A stretch of DNA of 64,000 nt from Bacteroidota bacterium (GCA_013285655.1 JABDHI010000003.1:1310-65309); one strand, 5' to 3'; positions 17,837 to 54,712 are shown, counted from the first letter of the stretch. The notes: generated by a model from the sequence alone, not told the origin. Numbers and translations are program-made.

Positions 17837-17841
17837 AGCCT

Positions 17842-18284: not shown

Positions 18285-19373
18285 TTAATAGGGGATATTA
18301 TTATTACGCATACCGTCTTGTCCGCTTAGAAAAGGGTTCGGATTAAGGAACCGAAGCGATATTTCAAAACCTCCTAGTCCTGTAGTTGCATTTATTAATG
18401 ATGATGTGTTAAGGTCATAGCTTAAACCAATTGCATATGAACCCAGTTCTAGTCCTAATAATGCAACTATAGCATCATTCCATCGATAATACGCACCTAA
18501 GTATATTGCGGCCCCTTGTTCACCCGTGTATTTGTGTTGCGACCTAAGGGCATACCGCAGTTTTGAACCAATATCAAACTCCTGTGCAGGCCCTTGTTGC
18601 ATGAACATAAAAGAGGGTACAATGCCAAAATTGGTATTGTTAATAAGGTAAAATACATTACCATGCAATACAAAGCGCATGTATAAATCAGATCCTGGCG
18701 TTGATTGACCGTAGTATGATAATTGGGGTTCGTTTACATGGAATACGGCCGCTCCCAAATTTAATTTAAATTGATTGTTCTTTGTCATCGTGGTTTGGCC
18801 TTGTGTATAATGATAGTAAATACCCGCAGAAAAGTCAAGGTAAGAGAATGAGTTACCTGTTGACGGTTCACCACTTGGTGCGTGGGGGTCATACTGGCCA
18901 TTAATTACCTGTTCTCCCCATTCAATGTTTTGCAAATTTATACTTTGCTGTCCCCAGCCTGCCTGCAGGCCTCCAGAAAGGCTACTTGATGGATTTAAAT
19001 AAATGCCGCTGGCAATTGTAAGATCAACATTGGTTGTTTGCAGGTTAGCATTGGCAGTCTTATCTGAGAAAAAGGATATGCCTGGCGACAAGTAGCCTTT
19101 TATCCATTTCTTCATTACGTTATGTAGTTGAAATGAGGCTGCCATAGTATTGTATCCGTAATTACTGCCAGATATAGTTGGCCATTGGTTGCGGTAGTTG
19201 ACTGTAGCTAAAATTTGACCACTATATGCTCCGCAAACTGCAGGGTTTAAAGTAAGTGGGCTTTCATCAAACTGCGAAAAATGTATATCCTGAGCATTTA
19301 GCGTAAAGCTTAATGCAAACAAGATCACTTTCGATAGAAGCGTTTTGTAAAATGAACCTTTTTTTGTGTTCAT
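18285..19373 (-). CDS. T9SS membrane protein of the PorP/SprF family
   Basis: Signal peptide, then AQDIHFSQFDESPLTLNPAVCGAY, which is the family N-terminal consensus QD.hFSQ....P...NPA..G. Size 362 aa. It lies immediately downstream of a type-B sorting-domain adhesin on the same strand, a sprB-sprF-like arrangement. Confidence 0.85.
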   Translation of the reverse strand: MNTKKGSFYKTLLSKVILFALSFTLNAQDIHFSQFDESPLTLNPAVCGAYSGQILATVNYRNQWPTISGSNYGYNTMAASFQLHNVMKKWIKGYLSPGISFFSDKTANANLQTTNVDLTIASGIYLNPSSSLSGGLQAGWGQQSINLQNIEWGEQVINGQYDPHAPSGEPSTGNSFSYLDFSAGIYYHYTQGQTTMTKNNQFKLNLGAAVFHVNEPQLSYYGQSTPGSDLYMRFVLHGNVFYLINNTNFGIVPSFMFMQQGPAQEFDIGSKLRYALRSQHKYTGEQGAAIYLGAYYRWNDAIVALLGLELGSYAIGLSYDLNTSSLINATTGLGGFEISLRFLNPNPFLSGQDGMRNNNIPY

Positions 19374-19422
19374 TTTTGTTATGCTTTACAATATAGTTTC
19401 ATACATATTCATTTTAAGTAAG

Positions 19423-24048: not shown

Positions 24049-24086
24049 GTTAGTTGCTTGCTGACTTTGAATAGATATAGAGTTAA

Positions 24087-25991: not shown

Positions 25992-26212
25992 ACTAAGTTG
26001 ATTAATGGCCATTCTAATACCATTTAGATAATAATTCCTTAAAGACATCAATATTATGTATCATTTTAAAAAAAAACAAGGCTCCTCATTCTGTTTCTCT
26101 TATGTTGCTGGTTATCAGTTTAATAATTCATATTGATTATTAGTAATCGCGCATTGATTCCCATAAAAAAGCCTACAGGTTTTACTAACGGCTTTTTTTA
26201 ATAACCAATATC

Positions 26213-29200
26213 CTATTGCTTTATAAACGAAACGACCTGCTCATTGTTATTCAATAGTACTCTCACAAAATAAAAACCTTGGGGCAATGATTGAATATTC
26301 AGTGTTATTGTTTTGCCATTTGTTACTAATGCTTTTTGTGTCATTATTTCTTTACCGCTTAAGTCTATAATTTTTATTTCCGCACTATTATCAGATTGAA
26401 GGCTTTGAACATTAAATACCAAGTTTAACTCATTGTTTGCAGGGTTAGGGTATAGTTCGGTATTTGTATTTTCCATAATTGAATTTATGCCTGTAGGAAC
26501 TACCGTTACAGAAAAGGTGGCAACACCCGAACAACCATTGGTGGTGCCAGTAACCGTGTAGGTCATAGAAATAAGGGGACTGACAATTGTGGTGTCGTAT
26601 AAACTTCCACTTGACCATGAATATGTAGTAGCACCTTTGGCTGTTAATGTATCTCGACTACCTATATTTATATTGCTTGTTCCCGTTATAGTTACAGTTG
26701 GTGTTGGAGTAATAGTTAAATTAAGAGTTAAGGTACTGTCGCAACCTTCTTTATCAGTTAATAATTGAGTTGGCGTACCCGAAGAAGTGTAGATGTTGCC
26801 ATACCATTTAAAGCTATTACAAGCTGAAGCAGTGGTGTCTCCTGTAGTAGGGTTATGAATAGTCAAATGAAGTGTAAGGGTGCTGTCACAACCCGTTTTA
26901 TTTGTTAATATTTCAGTTGGAGTGCCAGATGAGGTATAAACATTACCATACCATTTAAAGCTACCGCAAGCTGAAGCAGTGGTGTCTCCTGTAGTAGGGG
27001 TGTTAATAGTCAGGTGGAGTGTAAGTGTGCTATCGCAACCCGCTTTATTTGTTAATATTTCAGTTGGAGTGCCGGATGAAGTATAAACATTACCATACCA
27101 TTTAAAGCTACCGCATGCTGAAGCAGTAGTGTCTCCTGTAGTAGGGGTGTTAATAGTCAGGTGAAGTGTAAGTGTGCTGTCGCAACCTTCTTTATCAGTT
27201 AATAATTGAGTTGGCGTACCCGAAGAAGTGTAGATGTTGCCATACCATTTAAAGCTATTACAAGCTGAAGCAGTGGTGTCTCCTGTAGTAGGGGTGTTAA
27301 TAGTCAGGTGGAGTGTAAGTGTACTATCGCAACCCGCTTTATTTGTTAATATTTCAGCTGGAGTGCCGGATGAAGTATAAACATTACCATACCATTTAAA
27401 ACTGCTGCATGCTGAAGCGGTGGTGTCTCCTGTAGTAGGATTATTAATAGTCAGGTGGAGTGTAAGTGTACTATCGCAACCCGCTTTATTTGTTAATATT
27501 TCAGCTGGAGTGCCGGATGAAGTATAAACATTACCATACCATTTAAAACTGCTGCATGCTGAAGCGGTGGTGTCTCCTGTAGTAGGATTATTAATAGTCA
27601 GGTGAAGTGTAAGTGTGCTGTCACAACCTTCTTTATCAATTAATGCCTGAGTAGGTGTACCCGAAGAAGTATAGATGTTGCCATACCATTTAAAACTGCT
27701 GCATGCTGAAGCAGTAGTGTCTCCTTTAGTAGGATTATTAATAGTCAGGTGAAGTGTAAGTGTGCTGTCACAACCTTCTTTATCAATTAATGCCTGAGTA
27801 GGTGTACCCGAAGAAGTATAGATGTTGCCATACCATTTAAAACTGCTGCATGCTGAAGCAGTAGTGTCTCCTTTAGTAGGATTATTAATAGTCAGGTGAA
27901 GTGTAAGTGTGCTGTCACAACCTTCTTTATCAATTAATACCTGAGTAGGTGTACCCGAAGAAGTGTAGATGTTGCCATACCATTTAAAACTGCTGCATGC
28001 TGAAGCAGTAGTGTCTCCTGTAGTAGGATTATTAATAGTCAGGTGAAGTGTAAGTGTGCTGTCACAACCTTCTTTATCAATTAATACCTGAGTAGGTGTA
28101 CCCGACGAAGTGTAGATGTTGCCATACCATTTAAAACTGCTGCATGCTGAAGCAGTAGTGTCTCCTGTAGTAGGGTTATTAATAGTCAGGTGCAATGTAA
28201 GTGTACTATCACAACCTTCTTTATCAGTAAACATATGAGTAGGAGTAGCTGACGAAGTATAGGTTGTACCATACCATGTAAAGCTTGAACAAGCTGAAGC
28301 AGTAGTATCTCCGGTAGTAGGATTATTAATAGTCAGGTGGAGTGTAAGTGTGCTGTCACAACCCGCTTTATTAGTTAAGATTTGAGTAGGTGTACCTGAT
28401 GAAGTATAAACATTACCATACCATTTAAAGCTGCTACAAGCTGAAGCAGTGGTGTCTCCAGTAGTAGGATTATTAATAGTCAGGTGGAGTGTAAGTGTGC
28501 TGTCACAACCCGCTTTATTAGTTAAGATTTGAGTAGGTGTACCCGACGAAGAATAAACTGTTCCATACCATTTAAAGCTACTGCATGCTACAGCAGTAGT
28601 ATCGCCAGTATTAGAACATCCGCCCATAACAAAATACCCTAAGCTAACTGTGTTGTCGGAATTATTTATTGAGTTTATTGTTGGAGTGCCATGCAAGGTA
28701 GAGTATGTTCCATTAACAGTAGCACTTGTGGCAATAACATTTAGCGGGCTAATTGCACTAGGACGTGTAAGACCAACAATAGCTCCGGTAAGACTTCCAG
28801 ATGCAACATCTGCATACCAGTATTCAGTATTACTTAATGAGTGAACCGTAATGTTATCCGGTGTTCCTCCGCAATTACTGTTGAACGCTTGTGCCTGCAC
28901 TTGTGGTAATGTACCGGTAGGTGTAATAGTAAAAGGATAATAGCTTGTGCCGTTACCTATAGGATAAGTATAGGCGGTTCCTGATGACAAGTTCCAGTTC
29001 ATTGGACCGTTCACATAGCTTGTTGAAGATGGTGCAACTACTGAGGTAGTTAATGTATCGTTTACAGTTAATAAGTTTGTTGTGGTCGTAGTAAGTAAGC
29101 CATTGGTCAGTGTAAGTATTCCATCTACAGTAGTCGGATTTGATAGAGTTACACCCGCAACATTATTAATATTTAAATTGTTTATAGTGCTTGGCATCGT

Positions 29201-32200
29201 TAGCCCCGTTGTTTGGGCTATAGTACCATTGAATGTGTAGTTTGCGGCGGGGTCAAAATGGTTTAGTCCTGAGGTTGTAATAGTACCATCAAGGCCTGTC
29301 GTATTTGTTGTTCTAATTGTTGCTCCGCTTTGAAGCGAGAAAACTCCTGATCCGCTAATAACATTTGATCCCGCTGTTAATATCGCTCCTGTTTTCACAG
29401 TAAATGTGCCTGTAACAACAACATTACTTGTTAAAGTAGTACCAAAGGCAATGTTTTGCAGGGTAATGTTACCTGCAGCCGTTAAATAAGCACCTGTATT
29501 CATTGCAGCTGTGCTTTGCAGAAACACATAGTTAGCCGCAGGATTAAGTAAAACGTTTGTAATGGTAAAGCATCCATTGATGCCTGTAGTTTTTGCTATT
29601 TCTAAGGTAGCTCCGGCCAAAAGATTAAAAGTTCCAGTTCCGCTTATTACACGTATTGTGTCATCCAGTGTGGCGCCACTATTTACGGTAAGGCTTGTTG
29701 CATTAATTGCCTTGGCTGCACCCACACGTATAACTCCTGTATTTGCAATAGTAATTCCACCGGTGGCAGTAAAGGGTGTTATCCATTCTACGCCGGTTGT
29801 TCTTGCTAAATATGTGTTGTATTCTAATGACGCGGCGCTTCCATATATTGGTGCGTTGGATACAAAAGCGCTATCTTCCAAAGTTAGAGTGCCATTAACA
29901 GTATCACCAATTGTAGTTTTAAGTCCGTTACGTTCTAAAATAAGGTTGTAGTATTTTGTGCCTCCAACAATCTGATTAGTTCCGTCAAAAATAACAGTAC
30001 TTGTGTTTGAAATGAATTTGCCGCTATTTGAAAAATTACCCCTTACTACCAAGCTATCTGTGCCTGATATGGTTAATGAATCTCCTGAATTTATGGTAAT
30101 GTTATTACAATATGCAATTGTGTCATTGCCAATTACTGGTTGATAAGGTGGGGTAGATGAAATAGCAACATTAGTAGTAGAATCGGGAACGGTGCCGTAC
30201 GACCAGTTGCTGGGATTATTCCAGTCCGTACTCACAACACCTATCCAAGAATTTACAATGGCCGCCACATTTAAAATGCCTGTAGAAACAGGTGCAAAAT
30301 AGGTGGAGTTAATATTTGTAGCAGCAGACCCTGTTCCGCCGTATGAGCCCGGATTTTGTCCGGTAGTTCCATAAGTTAATGTATAAGCATAAGAGTTGCC
30401 GCTTCCAAGGTCGACTATAGCTGGATTAGTAATTGATAAATTTCCCTTTATACTATCAATCCCTGCAAATGTTTTAGTCCCAGTACCAGAAGCCGTTAAG
30501 CCGTAGAAATTAAAGGCAGGTATCGTTTGGGGGGACGTTCCATTAAAGTTTACTGTGCTCCCGTTTGTTGAATAAGTATTAGTGCCCGGGGTAAAAGTTC
30601 CAGCTATACCAATGTTATGGTTGGTACCCAATGTAATAGCAGCGGTTCCGCTAACGGTAAGGTTGTAATAATTAAATGCAGGGATGGTAAGAGTGGTGGT
30701 TCCATTAAATATTACGGTATTACCTGTTGCTTTTGCATCTATTGTATCAATAGTGGGTGTTGTGTCTATAGTAATTGTTGCTCCTGAAGCATTTAACAGG
30801 CCACCTGTTCCTGCTAAGGCAGAGGTTACGGTAAGTGTACCTGTGTTTTTTAATGAAATGCCAGTAACGGTTACTTTAGGCATTGAGAAATTTCCGGTTA
30901 AGGTTTGAGCATTGGTATTGAATGTTTGTACACCTGTACCGCCGACGGTAAAAGTACCATTGTTCGTAATACCTCCTCTAAATGTACTTGCCCTGCCTAC
31001 CGTATTATTCCATGTTGCACCACTGTTTATAGTTACCAATCCAATAAAGATCCTTGTTGTTCCTAAGGTTGAAATAAAATTGAAGCTACCGCTTAAGCCT
31101 GCACCAACTGTGGTTGTTCCATCAACAGTAAGGTCGTAATTGTTGTATACATTACTATTGTCAGCAATAGATAGGCTCCCTGTAATAACTGTAGCTTTGG
31201 TTTTTGATGCACCTGCAAGTATGGTGTCATTCCCGGGGCCTGAAAAAGTAACATTTCCATAAGTACCCGCCGCTAAATTTTGGTTAGTGCCATAAAATTG
31301 GATTGTACTGCCGCTACAGGAGAATGATGAGAATGTGGGTAGAGAATCATTACTTCCGCCGATTTTTAACGTGGTACCTATTCCCAGGAATAATTTTGCC
31401 GGGGTTACGGTAGTCATTTGGTAGATAGATAAATCAAGTGTTCCTGTTGAAATACTTAGGCCGGCTGTTGTAGCACCATTAATATTAATTGCAGAACCAG
31501 CAGTTACACCGGCGGAATTGTTAATTATTAGACTTCTGAAATTACATGTGCCACTTATAGTTTGTGCGCTTGTACCATTCATGGTAAGATTTAAATAGGA
31601 AGCGTTTGTTATAGCTCCCTGGAAAGAGTAATTGCCCGCGACGCTCATATTGCAACTTGAAACCACTTGTAATTCACCATATGCCGACGAGGAACAGGTT
31701 AAATTTCCTCCTATAGTTACAGTTGAAGTGTTGATTAGCCATTGGAGTACTGCCGAAGTAGCAATACTCCCCGAATTAAAAGTGAAATTCCCAGTACAAT
31801 TTAATGTACCTCCATTAATAGTAATTAAATTTTTTCGAGTGGCAAGTGTCCCACCATTAATTATAATGCTTCCAGCATTTAAAGTTCCTGTTCCAATTGC
31901 AAATGTTTTTGTAACTGCAGAGGTTTGAGCATTAAATGTAACTGCGCCGCTTACAGTTAAAACATCTCCGGCACCTATGGTAAATGTTGTTGCCGTCGCA
32001 GTTGTGTTTAAAGTGAGGCTTGCGCATGCGTCGGTAGTAGTATTTACCGAAACGTTTGCTCCTGAAGCAATGATTACATTATCGCCAGCGGCTGGGACTA
32101 CCCCAGTCGCCCATGTAGTAGTACTTTCCCAAGGACCTCCTGTCGCTGTAGATGTAATAGTTGCAGCATTCGAGATAATAATTGTACACAAAAATATTGC

Positions 32201-32251
32201 CAACGTAGCAATACACTTCTGTATCGTATTAGATTTTGTATTTGATGTCAT
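26213..32251 (-). CDS. 2012-aa secreted giant adhesin. It has about 1100 aa of parallel beta-helix-like Gly/Thr/Asn repeats, about 14 tandem 49-aa two-cysteine repeats and a T9SS type-A C-terminal sorting domain (26213..26455).
   Basis: Signal peptide. Beta-helix-style repeats of the form TxNGGTLxxxGNxT. The repeat unit is TTGDTTASACSSFKWYGNVYTSSGTPTQILTNKAGCDSTLTLHLTINNP, present about 14 times. The C-terminus ELYPNPANNELNLVF...IKIIDLSGKEI...LPQGFYFVRVLLNN fits the Por secretion (type-A) sorting domain. Confidence 0.85.
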   Translation of the reverse strand: MTSNTKSNTIQKCIATLAIFLCTIIISNAATITSTATGGPWESTTTWATGVVPAAGDNVIIASGANVSVNTTTDACASLTLNTTATATTFTIGAGDVLTVSGAVTFNAQTSAVTKTFAIGTGTLNAGSIIINGGTLATRKNLITINGGTLNCTGNFTFNSGSIATSAVLQWLINTSTVTIGGNLTCSSSAYGELQVVSSCNMSVAGNYSFQGAITNASYLNLTMNGTSAQTISGTCNFRSLIINNSAGVTAGSAININGATTAGLSISTGTLDLSIYQMTTVTPAKLFLGIGTTLKIGGSNDSLPTFSSFSCSGSTIQFYGTNQNLAAGTYGNVTFSGPGNDTILAGASKTKATVITGSLSIADNSNVYNNYDLTVDGTTTVGAGLSGSFNFISTLGTTRIFIGLVTINSGATWNNTVGRASTFRGGITNNGTFTVGGTGVQTFNTNAQTLTGNFSMPKVTVTGISLKNTGTLTVTSALAGTGGLLNASGATITIDTTPTIDTIDAKATGNTVIFNGTTTLTIPAFNYYNLTVSGTAAITLGTNHNIGIAGTFTPGTNTYSTNGSTVNFNGTSPQTIPAFNFYGLTASGTGTKTFAGIDSIKGNLSITNPAIVDLGSGNSYAYTLTYGTTGQNPGSYGGTGSAATNINSTYFAPVSTGILNVAAIVNSWIGVVSTDWNNPSNWSYGTVPDSTTNVAISSTPPYQPVIGNDTIAYCNNITINSGDSLTISGTDSLVVRGNFSNSGKFISNTSTVIFDGTNQIVGGTKYYNLILERNGLKTTIGDTVNGTLTLEDSAFVSNAPIYGSAASLEYNTYLARTTGVEWITPFTATGGITIANTGVIRVGAAKAINATSLTVNSGATLDDTIRVISGTGTFNLLAGATLEIAKTTGINGCFTITNVLLNPAANYVFLQSTAAMNTGAYLTAAGNITLQNIAFGTTLTSNVVVTGTFTVKTGAILTAGSNVISGSGVFSLQSGATIRTTNTTGLDGTITTSGLNHFDPAANYTFNGTIAQTTGLTMPSTINNLNINNVAGVTLSNPTTVDGILTLTNGLLTTTTTNLLTVNDTLTTSVVAPSSTSYVNGPMNWNLSSGTAYTYPIGNGTSYYPFTITPTGTLPQVQAQAFNSNCGGTPDNITVHSLSNTEYWYADVASGSLTGAIVGLTRPSAISPLNVIATSATVNGTYSTLHGTPTINSINNSDNTVSLGYFVMGGCSNTGDTTAVACSSFKWYGTVYSSSGTPTQILTNKAGCDSTLTLHLTINNPTTGDTTASACSSFKWYGNVYTSSGTPTQILTNKAGCDSTLTLHLTINNPTTGDTTASACSSFTWYGTTYTSSATPTHMFTDKEGCDSTLTLHLTINNPTTGDTTASACSSFKWYGNIYTSSGTPTQVLIDKEGCDSTLTLHLTINNPTTGDTTASACSSFKWYGNIYTSSGTPTQVLIDKEGCDSTLTLHLTINNPTKGDTTASACSSFKWYGNIYTSSGTPTQALIDKEGCDSTLTLHLTINNPTKGDTTASACSSFKWYGNIYTSSGTPTQALIDKEGCDSTLTLHLTINNPTTGDTTASACSSFKWYGNVYTSSGTPAEILTNKAGCDSTLTLHLTINNPTTGDTTASACSSFKWYGNVYTSSGTPAEILTNKAGCDSTLTLHLTINTPTTGDTTASACNSFKWYGNIYTSSGTPTQLLTDKEGCDSTLTLHLTINTPTTGDTTASACGSFKWYGNVYTSSGTPTEILTNKAGCDSTLTLHLTINTPTTGDTTASACGSFKWYGNVYTSSGTPTEILTNKTGCDSTLTLHLTIHNPTTGDTTASACNSFKWYGNIYTSSGTPTQLLTDKEGCDSTLTLNLTITPTPTVTITGTSNINIGSRDTLTAKGATTYSWSSGSLYDTTIVSPLISMTYTVTGTTNGCSGVATFSVTVVPTGINSIMENTNTELYPNPANNELNLVFNVQSLQSDNSAEIKIIDLSGKEIMTQKALVTNGKTITLNIQSLPQGFYFVRVLLNNNEQVVSFIKQ
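26700..28640. repeat. About 14 tandem near-identical coding repeats of about 147 bp (49 aa) within the giant adhesin gene
   Basis: The DNA unit ...gtaagtgtgctgtcacaaccttctttatcaattaat...ccatttaaaactgctgcatgctgaagc... repeats head-to-tail with only sparse substitutions. Confidence 0.8.
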
Positions 32252-45185: not shown

Positions 45186-45503
45186 TTATAGTTGGCTCTT
45201 TAATTTGCCTTCTAATACCGATTTTGGTACAGCACCTACTTGCTTGTCAACTATCTTTCCTCCCTTAAAAAAGAGGATAGTTGGTATATTACGAATACCA
45301 AACTCTGCAGAAACATTAGGGTTGTTATCAACGTCTACTTTTCCTACAATAGCTTTTCCTTCATATTCCTTCGATAGTTCTTCAACAAAAGGGCCTACCA
45401 TGCGGCAAGGGCCACACCATTCTGCCCAAAAGTCTAACAATACCGGTTTATCTGATTTCAGGACTAATTCCTGATAGTTTGCGTCTGTGATTTCAATTGC
45501 CAT
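45186..45503 (-). CDS. trxA: thioredoxin
   Basis: 105 aa with the WCGPC active site (FWAEWCGPCRM). Confidence 0.9.
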   Translation of the reverse strand: MAIEITDANYQELVLKSDKPVLLDFWAEWCGPCRMVGPFVEELSKEYEGKAIVGKVDVDNNPNVSAEFGIRNIPTILFFKGGKIVDKQVGAVPKSVLEGKLKSQL

Positions 45504-45760: not shown

Positions 45761-46492
45761 ATGCCGAAACTTTCAATTATTATACCTGTATATAACGAGG
45801 CCAGAACAGTTACTCTTATTCTCGATAAGGTGATAGAAGCTCCCGTTTCATATTCAATGGTTAAAGAAATTGTAATTGTTAATGACGGTTCAAAAGATAG
45901 CTCGCAGGCTATTATTGATGAGTACTTCGCAAAAAACAAGGAAAGGATAGAAGCCCAACAAGTAAGCTATAATATTCACCACAAAACGGTAAACGAGGGC
46001 AAAGGTGCAGCAATACATACGGGTATTAAATTGGCTACCGGAGATTATATTATTGTTCAAGATGCTGACTTAGAGTATGACCCAAGGGAGTATGATGTAT
46101 TGTTGAAACCAATAGCAGAAGGTTTTGCTGATGTTGTTTTTGGTTCACGCTTTATGGGTGGGAATCCACATCGTATATTGTTTTTCTGGCATTCTATCGG
46201 TAATAAAATACTCACTGCGGCATCTAACATGTTTACCAACCTAAACCTTAGTGATATGGAAACATGCTACAAACTATTTAAAGCTGATATTGTAAAAGGG
46301 TTAGATTTAAAAGAAAAGCGGTTTGGTTTTGAGCCCGAAGTTACCGCTAAGGTTGCTAAGGTAAAGGGAGTGAGAATATACGAAGTAGGTATATCGTATT
46401 ATGGCAGAACCTATGAAGAAGGTAAAAAAATTAACTGGCAAGATGGCTTCAGGGCTTTGTGGTGTATTTTAAAATACAACGCCATTAATTAA
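45761..46492 (+). CDS. GT2 polyprenyl-phosphate sugar synthase (Dpm1/PpmA-like). It is soluble and has no C-terminal TM segments.
   Basis: [14 protein letters not shown]...[11 protein letters not shown]...[11 protein letters not shown] shows the GT2 DxD motif and Dpm1-like architecture. 243 aa. Confidence 0.75.
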
Positions 46493-46494
46493 AA

Positions 46495-46953
46495 TTATTG
46501 TTTTATAAATAAGGCTAATTGCCTTTCAGCACCCGATACTTTTTCTTTTTCTGTAAGCATTGTATCTTTTTTCCAGTTGGGGTCTTTGTCTAGTAATTCG
46601 AATGGCATTCCGCCTTCTTCTTTTGAATACCAGTCATCCCAAATATATAAATTGCCTTTATGAAAACCGTCAGGATGCATAGGGTTTACTCCGGTAGTAG
46701 TAGGGTCAACATCCAAAGGCACTGATAAATATGAAGCATGGAAGAATATTCCTCTTTTTTTATAATCGGGATATTTAGTTTTTATGTATTCGCTCAGTTT
46801 ATTGGCAATTTCCTGATCGGCAGTTACTCTTATCGCCAAGTCGATGTGCTCAGATTTGCTACTTAAATTCTGTAGCATATACACCAGGTTAACAGTTATT
46901 ACTACTGCAATGCCAATAATGCTGATGATTTTTATTCTTTTTGTATTATTCAC
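46495..46953 (-). CDS. hypothetical membrane-anchored protein (N-terminal TM)
   Basis: 152-aa ORF with an N-terminal hydrophobic anchor. It is convergent with the GT2 gene. Confidence 0.4.
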   Translation of the reverse strand: MNNTKRIKIISIIGIAVVITVNLVYMLQNLSSKSEHIDLAIRVTADQEIANKLSEYIKTKYPDYKKRGIFFHASYLSVPLDVDPTTTGVNPMHPDGFHKGNLYIWDDWYSKEEGGMPFELLDKDPNWKKDTMLTEKEKVSGAERQLALFIKQ

Positions 46954-47041
46954 AGCTCAAAATAAATAAATATAAACGAGTTGATAGGTTTAAATAACGA
47001 TATTTCCTTGTAAACAGACTTTATTACTTATTTTTGGCTTA

Positions 47042-49990
47042 TTGAATCTTAGAATGAACGAGAAAAGGTTTATTACTTTTTTTATTCCGGCATCATTTCT
47101 TTTGCTTGTTTTTTGCGCTTTTTACTATAAAGGTACGGTTGACTCGGGCGATAGTGTTATGCATTACCTGTTTGCAAGGTTTGCCATAAACCATCCTGAA
47201 AGTTTCCTGAACCCATGGGCAAAGCCATTATATGTAGCACTTGCGACTCCTTTCGCCCAATTGGGTTTTATTGGTATAAAGCTGTTCAATTGCGTTAATA
47301 CAATTCTATCAATGCTGGCTGCTTATTTAATTGCCAAAAAGCTGAACATGAAAAATAGCTGGTTGGTACCTGTATTGCTTTTGTTGGCACCCATGAATTT
47401 TGCCCTTTCTTTCTCAGGTTTAACAGAGCCCTTGTTTGCTTCTGTAATAATTGTTGGTTTGTGTTTTCTTGTTTACGATCGTACTACTACAGGCCTTATA
47501 ATTCTTTCCTTTTTACCTTTTGTACGCTCTGAAGGTATGTTCCTGCTTATGGCAGTTGGCTTGTATTTAATAACTCAAAAAAAGTACAGAAGCATAATAT
47601 GGCTGGCAACCGGCCAGGTTGTTTATGCTGTTATAGGGTATTTTCATTTTAAAGATTTGTTGTGGTTTTATCACAACAATCCTTATTCTATGTTCAGTTC
47701 TTATGGCGATGGACCCTGGACAGATTATATAGATAACTTACCCTTAGTAGCAGGCTCTGCAACGTATTACTTAATTCTTGCAGGTTTTATAACTGCTCCG
47801 TTTACATTACTTAAAAAAGAAAACAAGAAGGACAACTGGCAGCTTATGCTTATTTGGACCATGGCTACTATGTATTTCTTCTTTCATGTTATATCATGGA
47901 CATTTGGGTTGTTCGGCTCGTTTGGTATGGCGCGTGTAATTGTGGGTATAATGCCATTGAGCGCTATACTTGCAGTATATGGCTTTAATAATATTATTAC
48001 GCTCGTTACTCCGGGGCTGTTTACTTATATAAAACAAACCTATAATGGATTAAAACCGCAATTTGTTTTTTATGCTATTATGTTACTGTTTGGTTTTATA
48101 TACGGTTTAATGGCTGTAGCCAATCACTATTTTTTCCGATCTACAGCATTTGACTTTGGACCATATAACTATGCGTTTTGGGATTATGCACATTTTCATG
48201 TAACGCCTTGCCCTATTTATAAGGTATTCTTCCCTATGAATGTTACATTCTTGCAAGATCATTTTTCACTTTTGCTAATGTTTCTTGCTCCTTTCTATTG
48301 GTTGCTAAACTGGTTAACGGGTACTTATACATTGTTACTTATACAAACCGGTTTTATTTTATGGGGGGCTTGGGCAATTTACAAACTGGTTGAACTTAAG
48401 ACCAAAGACGGATGGTTAGCGGTAGGGGCCGTATTGTATTTCTTTTTGTTACAGGGTAGGTATTCGGCTTTTGATGAGGATTGTAATATTATAATAATGG
48501 CATCCTGTTTTGTTCCATTGTTCTTATGGTTCTTCGAATCGAAGCGATATGTTGCTGCGTTGGTAATATTTATAGCTGCTGTTTTTTCAAGAGAAGATAT
48601 GTCATTATGGTTTGCATTTATACCTGTAGTATTAATTATATGGCATTGGAAGGAAAGGAAACTTGTGTATGTATCTATAGGTTATATACTGGCTTCTGTT
48701 ATTTGCTTTGTTTTAATTTTTAAGGTCTTTATACCTATGGTTCAATCTCCCGATAGGAAATATGACCTGTTTACCTATTCTGCTCTAGGTAAAGATCCTC
48801 TGGAAGCTTTGAATTATATACTAGGGTACCCTTTAAATGCCTTTACGCTATTATTCAAGAACCAATCGGGCAACCACGATTACGATAGCGTGAAAATGGA
48901 ATTCTATATGGTTTACCTGGTTTCGGGCGGGTTTGTATTATTTTATCGCCCCAAATATTTCATTTGGTTCCTTCCTCTCATTGCTCAAAAAATGTTTAAT
49001 GATGAACCTATTCGTTGGAGTATTGAGTCCTATTATTCTGTACAAGTAGCAACACTTTTACCAATACCGGTGTTTTTAATTCTTGCTAACGATAAAACAA
49101 AATGGCGTTATGGTTTAGCAATTTTAGTATGTGCGCTGGCCTTAACGGTTACACTGTATGATAATAATCCTTACAATCGCAAATTGGGTTACGCTGAGTC
49201 CATTAAGAGGAATATATTTAACTCAAAATTCTTTTTACCCGGCTATGATGCCGCCGCCATACATCACGATCTGCAAGAGATTCCTAAATATGCCAGCGTA
49301 TCGGCTTCAGCATCTATATTACCACATTTAGCTCAGCGTAAAAATATTTATGAATTTCCGGATATAGAGAATGCGCAGTATGTTGCTGCATTAACTTCAC
49401 CTGATTATTTTGCGATGCCTTCAGAATTTTACACCCAAGAGCTTTTTAATAAATATGTGTTTAATTCGGATTGGCAAATAATTCGATATGACGCACCATT
49501 TGTACTGTTGAAAAAAATATATGCTACAAACAGAACAAATAGTTATGAAAGTATTGTGTGTGACGCAGAGACTATGAGCCCTGATGGTAAGCGTTTAGTT
49601 GCCACTGGTGGAGTACTGCTGGACAACGATAGCGCCACCTGGAACACTGAACATGTGAGGCATGGAAAGCACTCTGTAAAACTTACTAAAGAAAAGCAGT
49701 ATGGAATGACTTTACGCATGGAGAAGTTTACCGCAGGCGATTTTGTATTGGCAAGTGTTTGGCGTTATTCTGCCAATAAAGACAAAGGTGCTCTTGTTGT
49801 TTCGGGTAATGGTATGTATTTACCATCTACTAAAAGTACGGCGAAAGACTCAGCTGGGTGGGAACAGCTTACTGTTTTCTTTATTATACCAGATAACCAT
49901 CAGGACCTGGGAGTTTATATTTGGGATAATAGTGATGACCCGGTTTGGTTTGATGATATGGAAGTGAAAAGATTAAAAGCACACCAATAA
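47042..49990 (+). CDS. 982-aa polytopic membrane protein. It is a GT-C-fold-like glycosyltransferase candidate with a C-terminal beta-sandwich domain.
   Basis: More than 12 predicted TM helices. An acidic motif (DSGDSVMHY) lies in the first extracytoplasmic loop, as in GT-C enzymes. The soluble C-terminal domain of about 250 aa is rich in beta-strand-type sequence. Confidence 0.5.
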   Translation: MNLRMNEKRFITFFIPASFLLLVFCAFYYKGTVDSGDSVMHYLFARFAINHPESFLNPWAKPLYVALATPFAQLGFIGIKLFNCVNTILSMLAAYLIAKKLNMKNSWLVPVLLLLAPMNFALSFSGLTEPLFASVIIVGLCFLVYDRTTTGLIILSFLPFVRSEGMFLLMAVGLYLITQKKYRSIIWLATGQVVYAVIGYFHFKDLLWFYHNNPYSMFSSYGDGPWTDYIDNLPLVAGSATYYLILAGFITAPFTLLKKENKKDNWQLMLIWTMATMYFFFHVISWTFGLFGSFGMARVIVGIMPLSAILAVYGFNNIITLVTPGLFTYIKQTYNGLKPQFVFYAIMLLFGFIYGLMAVANHYFFRSTAFDFGPYNYAFWDYAHFHVTPCPIYKVFFPMNVTFLQDHFSLLLMFLAPFYWLLNWLTGTYTLLLIQTGFILWGAWAIYKLVELKTKDGWLAVGAVLYFFLLQGRYSAFDEDCNIIIMASCFVPLFLWFFESKRYVAALVIFIAAVFSREDMSLWFAFIPVVLIIWHWKERKLVYVSIGYILASVICFVLIFKVFIPMVQSPDRKYDLFTYSALGKDPLEALNYILGYPLNAFTLLFKNQSGNHDYDSVKMEFYMVYLVSGGFVLFYRPKYFIWFLPLIAQKMFNDEPIRWSIESYYSVQVATLLPIPVFLILANDKTKWRYGLAILVCALALTVTLYDNNPYNRKLGYAESIKRNIFNSKFFLPGYDAAAIHHDLQEIPKYASVSASASILPHLAQRKNIYEFPDIENAQYVAALTSPDYFAMPSEFYTQELFNKYVFNSDWQIIRYDAPFVLLKKIYATNRTNSYESIVCDAETMSPDGKRLVATGGVLLDNDSATWNTEHVRHGKHSVKLTKEKQYGMTLRMEKFTAGDFVLASVWRYSANKDKGALVVSGNGMYLPSTKSTAKDSAGWEQLTVFFIIPDNHQDLGVYIWDNSDDPVWFDDMEVKRLKAHQ

Positions 49991-50117
49991 AACTTTAGGT
50001 AAACACTGTTATATATCTAAGCTGTAATATATCCCGAACAGAATTGAAGACTTATATACCCCTTGTAATTATTGGTTGGCTATAATGACTTCTTGCATTA
50101 AAGCATTAATAAAAAAA

Positions 50118-50146
50118 CGCCCCGAGTATTCGGGGCGTTTTTTTTA
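50118..50146. terminator. bidirectional rho-independent terminator between convergent genes
   Basis: A7, then hairpin cgccccga-gtat-tcggggcg, then T9. Confidence 0.8.
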
Positions 50147-50166
50147 TTGGTATTTCTATTTAATAC

Positions 50167-53100
50167 TTATTGTTGTTGCTGACCCATCTTTAGCATACCA
50201 GCTTTGTCCAGTTTGTCTATGCGGGCCTGAAATTCCTTAGCAACATCTGCTTGTCCAGCACTTTGAGAGAAGTATGCAAGCTGTTCCAATATACGGGTCG
50301 CTTGAACCTCCTGGTTGCCATAATAAGCAGCATTTTGCGGATCTAAACTATGGTCGTACTTCAATTCTTTTTCAAACTGATCGAACAACTGCTTAGCCAA
50401 CGGATTTGCTTTCTTAAAGTCCTTTAACTGGTAATAGTTATAGGCTATCATTACCATAGGGCCATCATACGGGCAGCTCTTTTCAGAGATAGAATCCATA
50501 CAAAGGTTAAGCACTTTTTCAGCAGAGTCTTTCTTATTCTCCTTAATTAAAGCTTCGGCTAATGTACCAACCTGTATCCTTAAGTCGGTTGCCATGCGCC
50601 TAACGTTCTCATCAAGGTACTCGCCGCTAGCCATGTTACCCCAGTGGAATTTATGCATTACATTGTCATACATAACATCTGTATTTACACGTGTGCCTTC
50701 AACTGAGTTATCGTTGGTTGCCGCAACAGGAACGAGTCTGTATATAAGCCCTTCTAACTGAAGGTACTTTTCAAGGCCCATATAGGCTTCCTGGCCGGTA
50801 GTAACTGCAAAACATATAGGGCGTTTCCAGTCGTTATGCGCCATTGCATCAAGCACCATTAATGTACTACGGTATACACCGTTGCCCGACATGGTCCAAT
50901 CAATAGCCGGAACAATTGCGCTGTCCGAAGTTTCTTTCGAAAGGGCTCCGCTTTTAATTACGTTTTCCTTATTTACTTTCAGTTCGAAGTTCTTGGTTGG
51001 GAAATAGTTTACATATTCGCCCTGGCCATTACTTATATCAAACTTATCTTCGGTCTTATCGCTCTTTACAAAGTTTATAAGGTCCTTCAGGTCAGTAAAT
51101 CCTTTTATACGTTTATCTTCAATAAAATAAACATAATCGCGGGTACCATCCCTGTACTGGTCGTGAGTAAGCGAGAATGGCATACGATCAGATTCGTAAG
51201 CCTTTCTGTTCATCTGGTCAACATACCAGCCCATACCTAGGAGTTCAAGGTTACAAACACGAACGTCTGTACGTATACCTTCAACTTCCTGTGCGTACCA
51301 AAGCGGGAATGTGTCATTATCGCCATTGGTAAATAGTATCGCATTCTTAGGGCACGATTCAAGATAGTCGATAGCAAGATCTCGTGTAGTGGTACGTTTT
51401 GAACGGTCGTGGTCATTCCATTCAGCATTTGCCATAACAACAGGTACTACCATGCTGGCTAATAATGCTATTGCAACAGCAGGTTTTCCATTGCCGTCTT
51501 TCATGCGCTTAGCAACAAACTCATAAATAGCCATTGCACCAAGGCCTATCCATATACAGAAGGCATAGAAGGAACCTACGTATGAATAATCACGTTCCCT
51601 AGGTTGATAAGGGGCCTGGTTAAGGTAAAGTACAATTGCAAGACCTGTAAAGAAGAAGTAGGTGAGTACCACTAAGCTATTCCTTCTGTCTTTCTTAAAG
51701 TGGAACACAAAGCCTAACAAGCCAAGAATAAGCGGTAAGCCGAACATTGCATTCTTTCCTTTATTATCAGCCAGTTCAGATGGTTGGTCATCTTGCGGGT
51801 AACGCATAGAATCTAAGAAAGGTATACCGGTTATCCAGTTACCATGCAGGTTATCCGGTGGATCGTATCCCTGTATATCATTTTGTCTTCCGCAGAAGTT
51901 CCATAAGAAATATCGTACATACATAAACTTAACCTGGTAGTTGAAGAAGTAGGTAATATTGTTCAAATAGCTTGGTTTTTCAACCATTTTACGTGCTTCG
52001 CCATCGGTAGGTGTAAAGGCTATCTTCTCGTATCCATCGGTACCGCCCCAGCTCTTATAACCTCTTGGGTGGCCTTCGTTAGGATCCCACATACGAGGAA
52101 AAAGAACACAGAAGTTAGGATCGTATTTTGGAAGTCTTATTTCATAAGCTTTAACATACTTACCCGATTTTTCATCCTTTGCATACGATGGGCCATTGTC
52201 AATTGCATCTATTTGCGGTGCAGTATAGTATGCGCCATATAATACAGGCCAGTCGCCGTATTGCTTACGGTCTAAGTAATCGTGCAGGCTTATAGGATCA
52301 CTAGGATTGTCTTCGTTCATTGGGGTAGGAGCATTTGCCCTTACTACTAATAATAAGAAGGAGCAATAGCCGATAATGAGAACAGCTAATGAAAGTATAG
52401 CAGTGTTCCAGCCTGGTTTGTTCCTTTTACGTGTATAATTAAGGCCCCAAACAATTAAGCTAATAACTACAACGGCATAAATAAGTATACCAGAGTTAAA
52501 TGGCATGCTCAAATGGTTTACGAAGAACAGCTCAAAGCCGGTAGCCAGATTTATAAGGCCTGGTATTATAAGACTCTTTACAATACCTGTAAGCACAATT
52601 GCTGCAATACCTGCAATTATAACGCCTTGTGTTTTCTTGTCTTTAGTAAATGGATTAAGGGCAATACTGAAGAACTTTGAATCAATTCCGTTAGGGTAGG
52701 TTTTAAAGAAGTAAAGCAATACCGCCGCAGGAATGAATAGTAAGCAAAGTAAGTGAACACCAATAGATAAGCCAATTAAGAAGAATATAAAGATGATCCA
52801 ACGTTCAGGATGTACTTCGCACCTGTCCCATTTGGTGGCGCACCAAAACATAAATGCAGTAAAACAACCCGACATTGACCAAACAGAGGCTTCAACTGCT
52901 GAGAACCATTGAGAATCGACAAAGGTGAATGATAAGCCGGCAATAATACCGCAGGCAAGTATCATGTACATTTTGTTTTCGGTAAGTTCACCATTACGTA
53001 ACACAAGCTTACGTGCAAAGAAGGTGGTTGTCCAGAATGCAAAAAGTATAGTAAATGCACTGAATGTAGATGCTGCATGGTTCATAAGCGGCGCTGCTTT

Positions 53101-53346
53101 ATGCACATCGCCAAAGCTTAATAATGAAACCAAGTGCTGTATCAGCTGCAAAAACGGCTCCCCTGGCGGGTGGCCCACTTCAAGTTTATAGTAAATAGAA
53201 AGGTTTTCGCTACAATCCCAAAAACTGGCTGTTGGTTCAACAGTACTGTAATATACCACTATTGCCACAAGGAATACTAACCAGCCTACTATTGTATTTA
53301 GGCGCGAAAGTCTTTGATCGAGAAGGTTATTTGAGCCGTTTGCCAT
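50167..53346 (-). CDS. DUF2723-family GT-C-fold membrane protein (TMEM260-like) with a C-terminal soluble region including TPR-like helices
   Basis: The N-terminus STVEPTASFWDCSENLSIYYKLEVGHPPGEPFLQLI matches the DUF2723 signature (D..E........HPPG.P). There are about 11 TM helices, then a domain of about 450 aa containing GDNDTFPLWYAQEVEGIRTD. Confidence 0.75.
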   Translation of the reverse strand: MANGSNNLLDQRLSRLNTIVGWLVFLVAIVVYYSTVEPTASFWDCSENLSIYYKLEVGHPPGEPFLQLIQHLVSLLSFGDVHKAAPLMNHAASTFSAFTILFAFWTTTFFARKLVLRNGELTENKMYMILACGIIAGLSFTFVDSQWFSAVEASVWSMSGCFTAFMFWCATKWDRCEVHPERWIIFIFFLIGLSIGVHLLCLLFIPAAVLLYFFKTYPNGIDSKFFSIALNPFTKDKKTQGVIIAGIAAIVLTGIVKSLIIPGLINLATGFELFFVNHLSMPFNSGILIYAVVVISLIVWGLNYTRKRNKPGWNTAILSLAVLIIGYCSFLLLVVRANAPTPMNEDNPSDPISLHDYLDRKQYGDWPVLYGAYYTAPQIDAIDNGPSYAKDEKSGKYVKAYEIRLPKYDPNFCVLFPRMWDPNEGHPRGYKSWGGTDGYEKIAFTPTDGEARKMVEKPSYLNNITYFFNYQVKFMYVRYFLWNFCGRQNDIQGYDPPDNLHGNWITGIPFLDSMRYPQDDQPSELADNKGKNAMFGLPLILGLLGFVFHFKKDRRNSLVVLTYFFFTGLAIVLYLNQAPYQPRERDYSYVGSFYAFCIWIGLGAMAIYEFVAKRMKDGNGKPAVAIALLASMVVPVVMANAEWNDHDRSKRTTTRDLAIDYLESCPKNAILFTNGDNDTFPLWYAQEVEGIRTDVRVCNLELLGMGWYVDQMNRKAYESDRMPFSLTHDQYRDGTRDYVYFIEDKRIKGFTDLKDLINFVKSDKTEDKFDISNGQGEYVNYFPTKNFELKVNKENVIKSGALSKETSDSAIVPAIDWTMSGNGVYRSTLMVLDAMAHNDWKRPICFAVTTGQEAYMGLEKYLQLEGLIYRLVPVAATNDNSVEGTRVNTDVMYDNVMHKFHWGNMASGEYLDENVRRMATDLRIQVGTLAEALIKENKKDSAEKVLNLCMDSISEKSCPYDGPMVMIAYNYYQLKDFKKANPLAKQLFDQFEKELKYDHSLDPQNAAYYGNQEVQATRILEQLAYFSQSAGQADVAKEFQARIDKLDKAGMLKMGQQQQ

Positions 53347-53512: not shown

Positions 53513-54712
53513 GTGTTTATGATTCTGTCTCTGAGGAACTTACTCATAATATGTGTTGTTTTGCTTGGATTGGCATGCAAAAATCTGAACAGGCAATCTG
53601 TTGAAATTACTAATAGACAATTGAAACCTGCCTTGGGTTGGGGCTCGGTTGGGTCAGGCTTAAGCGGCACCGTTAATGCCTTAGCAGTTTATAATGGCAA
53701 TTTGTATGCAGGTGGCAGAATTGATAGCGCCGGAGGTGCTCCCGTAAGCGGCATTGCTATGTGGGATGGTTATAGCTGGCATTCGGTTGGCAAAGGTATA
53801 ACGGGTAATGTTAAAGCGCTTACAGTTTATCACAATGAATTATATGCCGGAGGATTTTTTGACAGTGCCGGAGGGAAGCCATATAGTTGTATAGCTAAGT
53901 GGAATGGCACTAACTGGAGTGATGTAGATACACTTGCAGATGTTATTGCTATGACCACTTATAATAATAGGCTTTATGCAACCGGGTTTAACGATTCGAC
54001 TGATGAGAGAACTACCCATACTATTGGCAGCTGGGATGGATCAGAATGGGACAGTTTAGGTAATCCGGATAAGGACTGGGAAATTAAAAGCTTATGTAGC
54101 TATAATGGTAATTTATATGGCGGCGGAAAAATAAGTGGAGATAGTAACCTGATAGTGATGGCGAAACATGGGTGGACTTTAATACGTAAGCCTTTCAGGT
54201 TCGAAATTAATACCATGTTGCAATACAATGATGAATTATATACAGGGGGTGATGATGTTGCAAGCAACAGCGCTTCACATATTATGAAATGGAATGGTAA
54301 GATATGGAGTACTCCCGGAACTGGCCTTAAGGGGCAAATAAAATCATTGGCTTTATATAATGGCAAATTATATGCAGGTGGACAGTTTGCCAGAGTTGGT
54401 AATGAATATGCAGGATGCTTAGCCGTGTTAAATGAAGTCGATTGGCAAGCTGTGGGCGGAGGAGTTAACTTAAGCAACATTGCACTTGAAACAAAATGCC
54501 CCACTACACCAAGTAACTTGGTAATATATGTTGACAACACTCCGAATAAACGTGGTGTAATATACTACGATACCTTATTCGCAAATATCAGTGTTAATGC
54601 TATGGTAGAGTACAAAGGAGAACTGTATATAGCGGGTAAGTTCGATATAGCAGGAGGCTTACCTGCACAAAACATAGCTCGGTATAAAGAACCGGCTAAG
54701 CTGAATAAATAA
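53513..54712 (+). CDS. secreted beta-propeller-type repeat protein
   Basis: Signal peptide. There are at least 6 repeats of the form N.LYAGG.F.SAGG.P...IA.W.G..W...G. Confidence 0.5.
   Translation: MFMILSLRNLLIICVVLLGLACKNLNRQSVEITNRQLKPALGWGSVGSGLSGTVNALAVYNGNLYAGGRIDSAGGAPVSGIAMWDGYSWHSVGKGITGNVKALTVYHNELYAGGFFDSAGGKPYSCIAKWNGTNWSDVDTLADVIAMTTYNNRLYATGFNDSTDERTTHTIGSWDGSEWDSLGNPDKDWEIKSLCSYNGNLYGGGKISGDSNLIVMAKHGWTLIRKPFRFEINTMLQYNDELYTGGDDVASNSASHIMKWNGKIWSTPGTGLKGQIKSLALYNGKLYAGGQFARVGNEYAGCLAVLNEVDWQAVGGGVNLSNIALETKCPTTPSNLVIYVDNTPNKRGVIYYDTLFANISVNAMVEYKGELYIAGKFDIAGGLPAQNIARYKEPAKLNK

Follow-up and report, generated by a model that had tools for sequence, protein, structure and literature searches.

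What does a small Dpm1-like glycosyltransferase of family 2 (GT2) do beside a series of large membrane proteins of the GT-C type, and which of these proteins does it serve? The question is raised by positions 45,761 to 53,346 of a 64,000-nucleotide stretch of DNA from a Bacteroidota bacterium, an uncultured member of the Bacteroidia (GCA_013285655.1 JABDHI010000003.1:1310-65309), the whole of which is referred to here as the window. A sequence-only reading of the window had placed at this locus a soluble GT2, a 982-aa polytopic protein and a 1059-aa DUF2723 protein, all of which are present exactly where it put them. The answer that we favor, as somewhat better than an even bet, is a glycosylation module that works outside the cytoplasm with a lipid-linked monosaccharide as its donor and consists of the GT2 and the two parts of the 982-aa protein, namely the N-domain and DUF2079; the module has been rearranged by a 1-kb inversion, and the DUF2723 protein is separate from it. 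The features of the locus are the following.

45761..46492, + strand: soluble GT2, 243 aa, Dpm1/GtrB/ArnC-like, candidate polyprenyl-phosphate sugar synthase (PF00535)
46495..46953, - strand: 152-aa ORF between the GT2 and the 982-aa gene, one N-terminal transmembrane (TM) helix and a periplasmic domain
47042..47995, + strand: N-domain, aa 1-318 of the 982-aa ORF, GT-C module with 10 TM helices, its family lacking a Pfam model; probable start codon ATG at 47054
47996..48052, + strand: 19-aa linker, aa 319-337, made by the inversion junction (comparison with the related locus L090), predicted to be cytoplasmic
48053..49162, + strand: DUF2079 GT-C membrane module, aa 338-707 (PF09852)
49250..49975, + strand: periplasmic tail of the DUF2079 protein: alpha/beta subdomain at aa ~737-825, CBM-like beta-sandwich at aa ~836-978
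50111..50144, unstranded: bidirectional intrinsic terminator between convergent genes, 15-bp stem and 4-nt loop
50167..53346, - strand: DUF2723/TMEM260-like GT-C, 1059 aa (PF11028, E=7e-53)

The 152-aa ORF and the composite nature of the 982-aa ORF had been overlooked in the sequence-only reading.

Membership of the first protein in glycosyltransferase family 2 is clear from the Pfam scan (PF00535, E=2.6e-30, 106 bits against a cut-off of 23.3), and its description as Dpm1-like holds as well. When searched against the PDB, the profile of its family matches PfDPMS (5mlz, E=1.5e-24, covering 2-221 of 238), GtrB (5e-22, over 3-181) and ArnC (4e-18, over 2-216), so that the likeness to characterized synthases of this type extends over most or all of the length, beyond the nucleotide-binding half. 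For most other GT2 structures, the match is confined to the N-terminal half (~4-112/120, about the first 110 residues), with the longer matches to GalT1 (5hea) and 6h1j as exceptions. The DXD motif is DAD (D101-A-D103, aa 101-103), which aligns with the DAD of PfDPMS and is invariant across the GT2 orthogroup. The hydropathy profile shows no TM-like segment, the C-terminal helices of GtrB, ArnC and archaeal DPMS/PfDPMS being absent; in that respect, the GT2 resembles the catalytic domain of mycobacterial Ppm1, which also lacks TM segments (PMC3485146). Measured against the NCBIfam models tested (AglJ, ArnC, PgfS and PpgS), it is the equivalog of no named enzyme, with scores far below every threshold (the best, AglJ, at 100.6 bits vs 325). 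The GT2 probably charges a lipid carrier in the membrane with a sugar.

The same protein could conceivably be a glycosyltransferase of the ordinary kind, adding to a lipid-linked or soluble glycan, with the GT-Cs using undecaprenyl-diphosphate oligosaccharides in the manner of oligosaccharyltransferases or ligases. We consider this improbable, given that the best full-length matches of the GT2 are all polyprenyl-phosphate sugar synthases, that the fusion or translational coupling of a small GT2 to a GT-C, described below, parallels known synthase/GT-C pairs, and that neither an initiating phosphoglycosyltransferase nor Wzx was recognized among the ORFs scanned in the flanks of the module.

The 982-aa ORF (47042-49990, + strand) opens with TTG, and the ATG at 47054 fits the start position of its homologues. 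This ORF joins in tandem two GT-C modules that are unrelated to each other, the N-domain (aa 1-318) and DUF2079 (aa 338-982), with conserved acidic residues after TM1 in both halves. The sequence-only reading had counted two giant GT-C proteins and had asked whether fold searches would place them outside GT-C; the assignment stands for both the N-domain and DUF2079, whereas the view of the 982-aa protein as one GT-C, and with it the count, does not, the locus encoding three GT-C modules and a detached periplasmic domain.

The N-domain belongs to the GT-C fold superfamily by virtue of its 10 TM helices, a fold match to solved GT-C enzymes and a conserved acidic residue in loop 1. The motif of this periplasmic loop is GTVDSGDSVMHY; around its acidic stretch GTVDSGDS, which had been noticed before, D34 is nearly invariant, and D37 and H41 are invariant. 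Neither the N-domain nor five of its homologues gave a Pfam match to PMT, PMT_2 or ArnT at E≤1, and the family profile had no match in the PDB. As far as could be found, the N-domain represents a PMT/ArnT-like GT-C family that is apparently undescribed and for which Pfam has no model; it includes ~1,700 clusters at 50% identity, mostly from Bacteroidota. [quoted passage not shown] The C-terminal beta-sandwich, which had also been noticed before, resembles carbohydrate-binding modules in its fold. DUF2079 can be placed in the GT-C fold, with a CBM-like tail.

Comparative gene order shows that the two modules were fused via inversion of the 5' ~1 kb of an adjacent gene encoding a protein of ~470 aa. 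The layout is unfused in L007, L088 and L090; in L090, against which the junction was mapped, aa ≤318 and ≥338 correspond to two different genes, and the linker has no homologue. The 152-aa ORF, to judge from sequence similarity, is the detached C-terminal part (TM11 and C-domain) of the ancestral ~470-aa GT-C protein: it shares 42% identity (E=7e-33) with the 472-aa protein of L002, over aa 332-460 of the latter, is 27-35% identical to the C-termini of GT2::GT-C fusion proteins, and has no Pfam or NCBIfam match (both models were scanned). The inversion cut the first GT-C gene after TM10 and joined the membrane core in frame to DUF2079, with TM11 and the periplasmic C-domain staying behind as a separate protein. 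Because the breakpoint falls in the cytoplasmic loop after TM10 (topology from a model and hydropathy), both predicted topologies are kept.

The fused layout is rare, being found in only two contigs, the window and L006, the latter also carrying the 152-aa ORF at the equivalent place, and the linker is poorly conserved (pN/pS 0.64, indicating relaxed constraint, although it can still be aligned with L006 at 6/19 identical positions). Both observations would be expected if the fusion and the 152-aa ORF were functionless debris of a rearrangement or a mis-assembly, which we nevertheless regard as highly improbable. The layout recurs in an independent sequencing run and sample (SRR28211874 vs SRR8422479), the ORFs are intact in both genomes, the breakpoint preserves both topologies, and, with synonymous sites saturated, pN/pS is 0.12-0.35 for all pieces apart from the linker (0.12 for the GT2, compared with L006, and 0.20-0.35 for the pieces at issue; dN/dS is 0.20 for the 152-aa ORF). 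All pieces of the split and fused layout are under purifying selection. Given this selection on both products and the preservation of their predicted topology, the split enzyme presumably reassembles non-covalently. The locus amounts to a natural experiment in which one inversion separated a GT-C membrane core from its periplasmic domain and made a tandem GT-C polypeptide that has since been maintained by selection.

The functional link between the GT2 and the two modules of the 982-aa protein comes from other genomes. Fifteen protein clusters of 714-729 aa combine the GT2, the N-domain and the C-domain in one chain, and the GT2 of the window is 57-61% identical to their N-terminal domain. In many loci, including that of the cultured Sunxiuqinia indica, the GT2 and N-domain genes abut or overlap, and distant relatives repeat the arrangement in which the N-domain gene comes after the GT2 and is convergent with DUF2079. 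Downstream flank of 4.5 kb or more was available for 43 DUF2079 loci, of which 14 contain the N-domain gene and 13 the orthologous GT2; both are present in 11 of the 21 loci that make up the most distant identity band. The majority of DUF2079 loci lack both partners, and the orthologous GT2 is missing within 10 kb in about 70 of 80 N-domain loci; the linkage is therefore recurrent rather than universal. Taken together, the fusions and the recurrent gene order with DUF2079 imply that the GT2, the N-domain and DUF2079 form a functional module. The fusion couples the N-domain family to a Dpm1-like synthase as a concrete, testable donor-acceptor pair, for which a cultured carrier of the GT2-GT-C operon exists in S. 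indica.

The DUF2723 protein is a different case. Its assignment to the TMEM260 fold family, made previously from the D..E...HPPG signature, is borne out: PF11028 scores 179.5 bits against a cut-off of 24.2 (PF28495 and PF28497 are precomputed), the signature reads WDCSE...VGHPPG, and the sole PDB match of the family profile is human TMEM260, a protein O-mannosyltransferase (E=7.4e-17). The bacterial protein begins with a membrane module, followed by a ~190-aa periplasmic insert, more TM helices and then a ~415-aa periplasmic domain. The HMM alignment spans only human residues 29-206 and 364-479, which leaves R264, Y267 and R355 unaligned; within it, the invariant D44, E47, H59 and G675-D676 correspond to TMEM260 D52, E55, H67 and G440-D441, and D44, H59 and D676 are invariant in 34 sequences of the bacterial family. 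With its catalytic residues intact, it is a genuine TMEM260-type GT-C (dN/dS 0.08) and most likely a protein O-glycosyltransferase acting on its own. To our knowledge, no bacterial member of the family has been studied.

The sequence-only reading had tied the GT2 to all GT-Cs of the locus and had suggested glycosylation of T9SS cargo. Conserved linkage to the synthase holds for the N-domain and DUF2079, through Rosetta-stone fusions and gene order, and fails for DUF2723, which adjoins the module only in the window and close relatives (L002, L006, L007, L008/L088, L011 and L090). All three GT-Cs could still form one module fed by the GT2 and glycosylating proteins such as T9SS cargo, given this adjacency, the very large and conserved GT2 orthogroup, as might be expected of a shared donor synthase, and the requirement of DUF2723 for a lipid-linked donor from some source; we judge this unlikely. 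Of 80 loci examined for each, only 3 with DUF2079 and 2 with the N-domain also contain DUF2723, without exception in close relatives and in no DUF2079 locus outside that clade, and none of five more distant DUF2723 loci (47-61% identity) has any of the GT2, N-domain and DUF2079 genes within 10 kb. Moreover, DUF2723 is convergent with the module, from which it is separated by the strong, perfect bidirectional terminator that had been described earlier (7 G-C pairs in the stem, A7 upstream and T7 downstream). T9SS cargo genes often neighbor DUF2723 in other genomes; however, such genes are common throughout the phylum, and so this adjacency is weak evidence. In the window, unrelated housekeeping genes separate them from the locus, at a distance of 14-33 kb, and no link to the locus was found. 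Thus, DUF2723 adjoins the module yet probably has a separate function.

That function might bear on protein O-glycosylation in Bacteroidota, for which the OTase and core-glycan machinery are undiscovered according to a 2025 review that gives the reducing-end sugar of the O-glycan as a hexose (mannose) and urges a search for homologues of eukaryotic O-mannosylation (PMC12871550). [quoted passage not shown] The likeliest candidate would be the TMEM260 homologue, which is highly conserved phylum-wide, or else the PMT/ArnT-like N-domain family, with the strongly conserved Dpm1-like GT2 supplying Und-P-mannose. A literature search found no paper tying TMEM260 to Bacteroidota, and the bacterial homologue, with its catalytic residues intact, is flagged here as a candidate for the missing enzyme.

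For the module of GT2, N-domain and DUF2079, we envisage that the soluble GT2, working at the cytoplasmic face, would charge undecaprenyl phosphate with a sugar taken from a nucleotide sugar, that the lipid-sugar would be flipped by a protein encoded elsewhere, and that the two periplasm-facing GT-C modules, the 10-TM PMT/ArnT-like one and DUF2079 with its CBM-like beta-sandwich, would pass the sugar to an acceptor, which the CBM-like tail suggests to be a glycan. As reported before, no flippase-like gene is apparent: no Pfam family of the GtrA, SMR or MATE type was detected in the ORFs scanned at 39.6-58.2 kb, and no flippase family among the recurrent neighbor families scanned at related loci.

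Compared with known enzymes, the N-domain differs from PMT (GT39) and ArnT (GT83) in having no sequence match to the PMT, PMT_2 and ArnT models and no MIR domain; the periplasmic domain of its family is a different module of ~130 aa, carried here on a separate polypeptide. The likeness of the 1059-aa protein to human TMEM260 (PDB 9rql; PMC10214176; bioRxiv 10.64898/2026.03.17.711096) covers the GT-C module at the N-terminus and a portion of the lumenal domain, and residues D52, H67 and D441, which were shown to be essential in the human enzyme (PMC10214176; bioRxiv 10.64898/2026.03.17.711096), are invariant in the bacterial family. Unlike TMEM260, the 1059-aa protein is 350 aa longer, with the ~190-aa periplasmic insert (Pfam DUF8416), and its donor would be undecaprenyl- rather than dolichyl-linked.

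The three-component systems (GtrA/GtrB/Gtr*, CsbB/GtcA/YfhO and the GT136 system of Kelly et al. 2024, PMC11127046) likewise couple a GT2 synthase genetically to outward-facing GT-Cs, and in ORF12 of the GT136 system a GT-C bears a CBM-like domain (PMC11127046). By contrast, the present locus has no linked flippase gene, its GT2 lacks TM helices, and its GT-Cs belong to uncharacterized families, one without a Pfam model and one a DUF; in some species the synthase is fused to a GT-C, and here two GT-Cs are fused together. The sequence-only reading was aware of no characterized bacterial example of one synthase with several GT-Cs; such examples do exist. In the Streptococcus mutans Pgf cluster, the GT-A PgfS lies beside two different GT-Cs, PgfM1 and PgfM2, which were shown to put GalNAc on Ser/Thr-rich protein regions (PMC11092751); these GT-Cs are YfhO-type and Gram-positive, whereas the CBM-like tail of our locus points to a glycan. 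In mycobacterial Ppm1/Ppm2 (PMC3485146), a soluble DPM-like domain fused or adjacent to a membrane protein feeds several GT-Cs; there, the partner (D1/Ppm2) is a six-TM membrane anchor and not a GT-C, whereas in the family described here the GT-C fused to the synthase is a candidate for using the donor itself.

The three genes named in the sequence-only reading of the locus are reproduced exactly by the ORF table, whereas a fourth, the 152-aa minus-strand ORF, had been overlooked. The features are as follows.

45186-45503, minus strand: thioredoxin gene, adjoining GT2
45761-46492, plus strand: GT2, 243 aa, PF00535 match (E=2.6e-30), hydrophobic segment absent
46495-46953, minus strand: 152-aa ORF
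47042-49990, plus strand: 982-aa ORF, DUF2079 match across aa 362-797 (E=8e-32)
50111-50144: bidirectional hairpin, 15-bp stem with A7 and T7 on its sides
50167-53346, minus strand: DUF2723 gene, 1059 aa, TMEM260-like N-terminal model (E=7e-53), WDCSE...VGHPPG signature
53513-54712, plus strand: Rax2-like beta-propeller gene, divergent from DUF2723

The two large genes are convergent, and the hairpin lies between them as a shared terminator. The 982-aa ORF, however, is not the single polytopic protein it was taken for: alignments to relatives reveal a composite of two genes. In L002, the locus of a relative with a DUF2723 protein 78% identical to that of the window, a 472-aa protein aligns to the window in two pieces, with its first 316 residues matching aa 5-321 of the 982-aa ORF (59% identity, E=9e-128) and residues 332-460 matching the 152-aa minus-strand ORF (42% identity, E=7e-33). 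Homologs of the DUF2079 part are nearly all about 650 aa long and cover just the C-terminal two thirds of the 982-aa ORF. The full fused architecture is found elsewhere only in the homolog P0121 (960 aa, 66% identity), whose contig, L006, comes from run SRR28211874, independent of the run (SRR8422479, uncultured Bacteroidia organism) that yielded the window contig; both contigs have the gene order thioredoxin, GT2, 152-aa ORF, fusion, DUF2723, Rax2-like gene. In the unfused loci L007, L088 and L090, GT2 is convergent with a gene of about 450-470 aa, itself divergent from a DUF2079 gene of about 650 aa. These gene orders show the unfused layout to be ancestral, and the window arrangement results exactly when the 470-aa gene has its 5' ~1 kb inverted.

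In the comparison with L090, residues up to 318 of the 982-aa ORF come from the 470-aa gene and those from 338 onward from the DUF2079 N-terminus, with residues 319-337 forming a new linker. The AF2 model of the N-terminal part (N-domain) has ten TM helices and both termini in the cytoplasm, which places the inversion breakpoint in the cytoplasmic loop that precedes TM11; what remains in the 152-aa ORF is TM11 plus the periplasmic C-domain of the ancestral protein. Topology is preserved because the fusion joins two N-in modules. The linker is homologous and still alignable in both fused genomes, and therefore the rearrangement appears to be a single old event, not a switch. A programmed, invertase-type inversion was considered and rejected, given that no inverted repeats spanning both breakpoints were found; the longest exact match between the breakpoints is 8 nt, a length reached by 123 of 200 shuffles. 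The window DUF2723 protein shares 88-89% identity with those of unfused relatives, against just 85% with that of the other fused genome (L006, L088 and L090 compared), a pattern at odds with the single origin of the fusion indicated by the linker, possibly due to rate variation or recombination.

Between the window and L006, where synonymous sites are saturated, pN/pS is 0.12 for GT2, 0.20 for the 152-aa ORF, 0.30 for the N-domain, 0.20 for DUF2079, 0.35 for the beta-sandwich and 0.64 for the linker, so that every coding piece is maintained by selection and the linker alone is relaxed. The adjoining thioredoxin is 99% identical at the protein level between the two contigs, and a thioredoxin-DUF58 pair adjoins GT2 in L002 as well.

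The N-domain (aa 1-335) is modeled with pLDDT 91.1 and pTM 0.90, and the DUF2079 part with pLDDT 91.6. Searches with family profiles against the PDB gave no match for either; the N-domain has no meaningful Pfam match even at E<=1 and only a weak NCBIfam match, NF046093, and our literature searches found no mention of NF046093 and no publications on DUF2079. A motif after TM1 of the N-domain (D34, D37, H41) is conserved; the loop-1 aspartates of the DUF2079 part are D371 and D381. Clustering at 50% identity divides the N-domain family into about 1,684 groups, mostly of 460-490 aa with a subset of 620-645 aa, and the family is present in 459 GTDB species genomes, for the most part Bacteroidota. 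The three GT-C modules of the window are distinct families: profile comparisons among them give hhalign probabilities of at most 1.3%, and a shared ancestry was therefore rejected.

The GT2 lacks TM helices and scores under every NCBIfam equivalog cut-off. Its orthogroup profile matches PfDPMS over nearly the full length (E=1.5e-24), and also GtrB and ArnC, with alignments to most other GT2 structures confined to the nucleotide-binding half. This orthogroup is both very large and highly conserved, with 70% identity still seen at the 120th best cluster. Two GT2 paralogs, 69% and 72% identical to the window GT2, lie at 14661-17986 in L002; between them is a 606-aa membrane protein that carries no annotation and has no sequence relationship to the 982-aa ORF.

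Fusions link these families directly. Fifteen protein clusters of 714-729 aa combine, in a single chain, GT2 (57-61% identical to the window GT2), the N-domain (39-44%) and the C-domain (27-35% identical to the 152-aa ORF). Because a single TM helix lies between GT2, which is cytoplasmic, and the DxGDS loop in these chains, we infer, in part, that this loop is periplasmic. A layout that recurs among 80 DUF2079 loci from metagenomes has GT2 and then the N-domain gene, the stop of one often overlapping the start of the next, with DUF2079-CBM convergent to them. Counting only the 43 loci with enough flank, the N-domain gene is present in 14, the orthologous GT2 in 13 and both in 12; in the most divergent identity band, both partners occur in 11 of 21 loci. 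In the cultured Sunxiuqinia indica (GCA_009847015.1), a 623-aa N-domain homolog starts 11 bp after GT2. At N-domain loci, GT2 is within 10 kb in only about 9 of 80, and no family recurs as a neighbor in more than 10 loci across 80 species genomes. The linkage of GT2 to the N-domain is recurrent, not obligatory. Weak hints (hhalign 64-69%, one PMT_2 match) suggest that further 8-10-TM neighbors in DUF2079 loci might also be GT-C proteins.

Tandem DUF2079 duplicates occur at L089, L094 and L109. Loci with the GT2/N-domain operon (L113, L119, L120, L128, L133 and others; L171, 5698-7594) repeatedly carry additional genes. These encode a ~160-aa cytidylyltransferase, adjoined by an AhpC/TSA-domain protein of 466-480 aa; other proteins with 8-10 TM helices and 468-584 aa, among them one that matches PMT_2; an MBOAT; and a GH3-beta-lactamase fusion.

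The kinship of the DUF2723 protein with TMEM260 holds: the family profile matches human TMEM260 alone in the PDB (E=7.4e-17), and 34 diverse bacterial sequences show no variation at the positions aligned with D52, H67 and D441, each of which has been shown to be indispensable to the human enzyme (bioRxiv 10.64898/2026.03.17.711096). Its proposed co-occurrence with GT2 fails in relatives, with five loci at 47-61% identity lacking any module gene, and DUF2723 is therefore treated as a neighbor, not a member; it adjoins the module only in the window's own clade. Thus, of the single module of GT2 and two giant GT-C proteins originally proposed, fusions and gene order uphold GT2, the split N-domain GT-C and the DUF2079 GT-C, with DUF2723 alongside. 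Bacteroidota general O-glycosylation, in which mannose is the reducing-end sugar, still lacks a known transferase and core machinery (PMC12871550; PMC8729774). Obvious candidates are a TMEM260 homolog found across the phylum, its catalytic residues intact, together with the conserved Dpm1-like GT2, albeit ones we consider rather unlikely to be this machinery; we found no paper that makes this connection.

The surroundings of DUF2723 vary. Its pairing with the Rax2-like gene is retained in L005, L006, L007 and the contig of P0001, the closest relative (DUF2723 identity 89%), and L002 has a PKD/Por_Secre_tail gene instead. In the P0001 contig, what is probably a mobile element, with an rve-type integrase gene and some ten small ORFs, is inserted between DUF2723 and a 651-aa DUF2079 gene (13336-21005); in the unfused L007, a GH16 glycoside hydrolase gene (4087-5142) lies between the two. 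In the more distant L003 (7326-9032 and 15872-19039) and L170 (6066-9550 and 22804-23153), DUF2723 is directly downstream, on the same strand, of one or two PMT_2(+TPR) genes, with a second DUF2723 paralog within 10 kb. Genes for Por_Secre_tail T9SS cargo adjoin DUF2723 in L002 (7768-9822), L168 (7849-9543) and L169 (8092-9639), in otherwise different neighborhoods; because such genes are common in Bacteroidota, this adjacency may be chance.

Farther away, the window holds T9SS cargo and sugar-modification genes.

325-11431, plus strand: HAD hydrolase, HisH/HisF-like amidotransferase pair, QueC-like protein, GT4, FemAB-like protein, DegT aminotransferase, UDP-GlcNAc 2-epimerase
12887-32251: three very large T9SS cargo genes, 1509 aa (SprB/PKD/CHU_C), 1541 aa (Ig_7/CHU_C) and 2012 aa (Por_Secre_tail)
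18285-19373, minus strand: PorP/SprF gene

The suggested link of the module to the T9SS cargo is rejected on account of the distance and the housekeeping genes in between; the intervening genes encode Era/Der GTPases, a DsbH-like protein and an ECF sigma factor. The gene run at 325-11431 resembles a locus for the biosynthesis of a polysaccharide or of LPS sugars, and might be a source of an acceptor glycan.

Beyond the folds, fusions, gene order and selection, which are established, we propose that GT2 makes an Und-P-monosaccharide, which an unlinked flippase would move (the search at this and related loci was negative, in line with the initial impression) and from which the two GT-C modules would transfer the sugar in the periplasm. 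The CBM-like tail would imply a glycan acceptor, and the detached C-domain presumably reassociates with the N-domain. The same logic underlies the Gtr, CsbB/YfhO and GT136 three-component systems (PMC11127046), mycobacterial Ppm1 (PMC3485146) and the Pgf cluster, and therefore this kind of system is already known; the architecture had been thought to lack a characterized bacterial example, but Pgf comprises one synthase and two GT-Cs (PMC11092751). New relative to these systems are a GT-C family that no Pfam model covers, the assignment of DUF2079 to a fold, the covalent joining of synthase and GT-C in single chains, and a polypeptide with two GT-C modules in tandem whose periplasmic domain has been split off.
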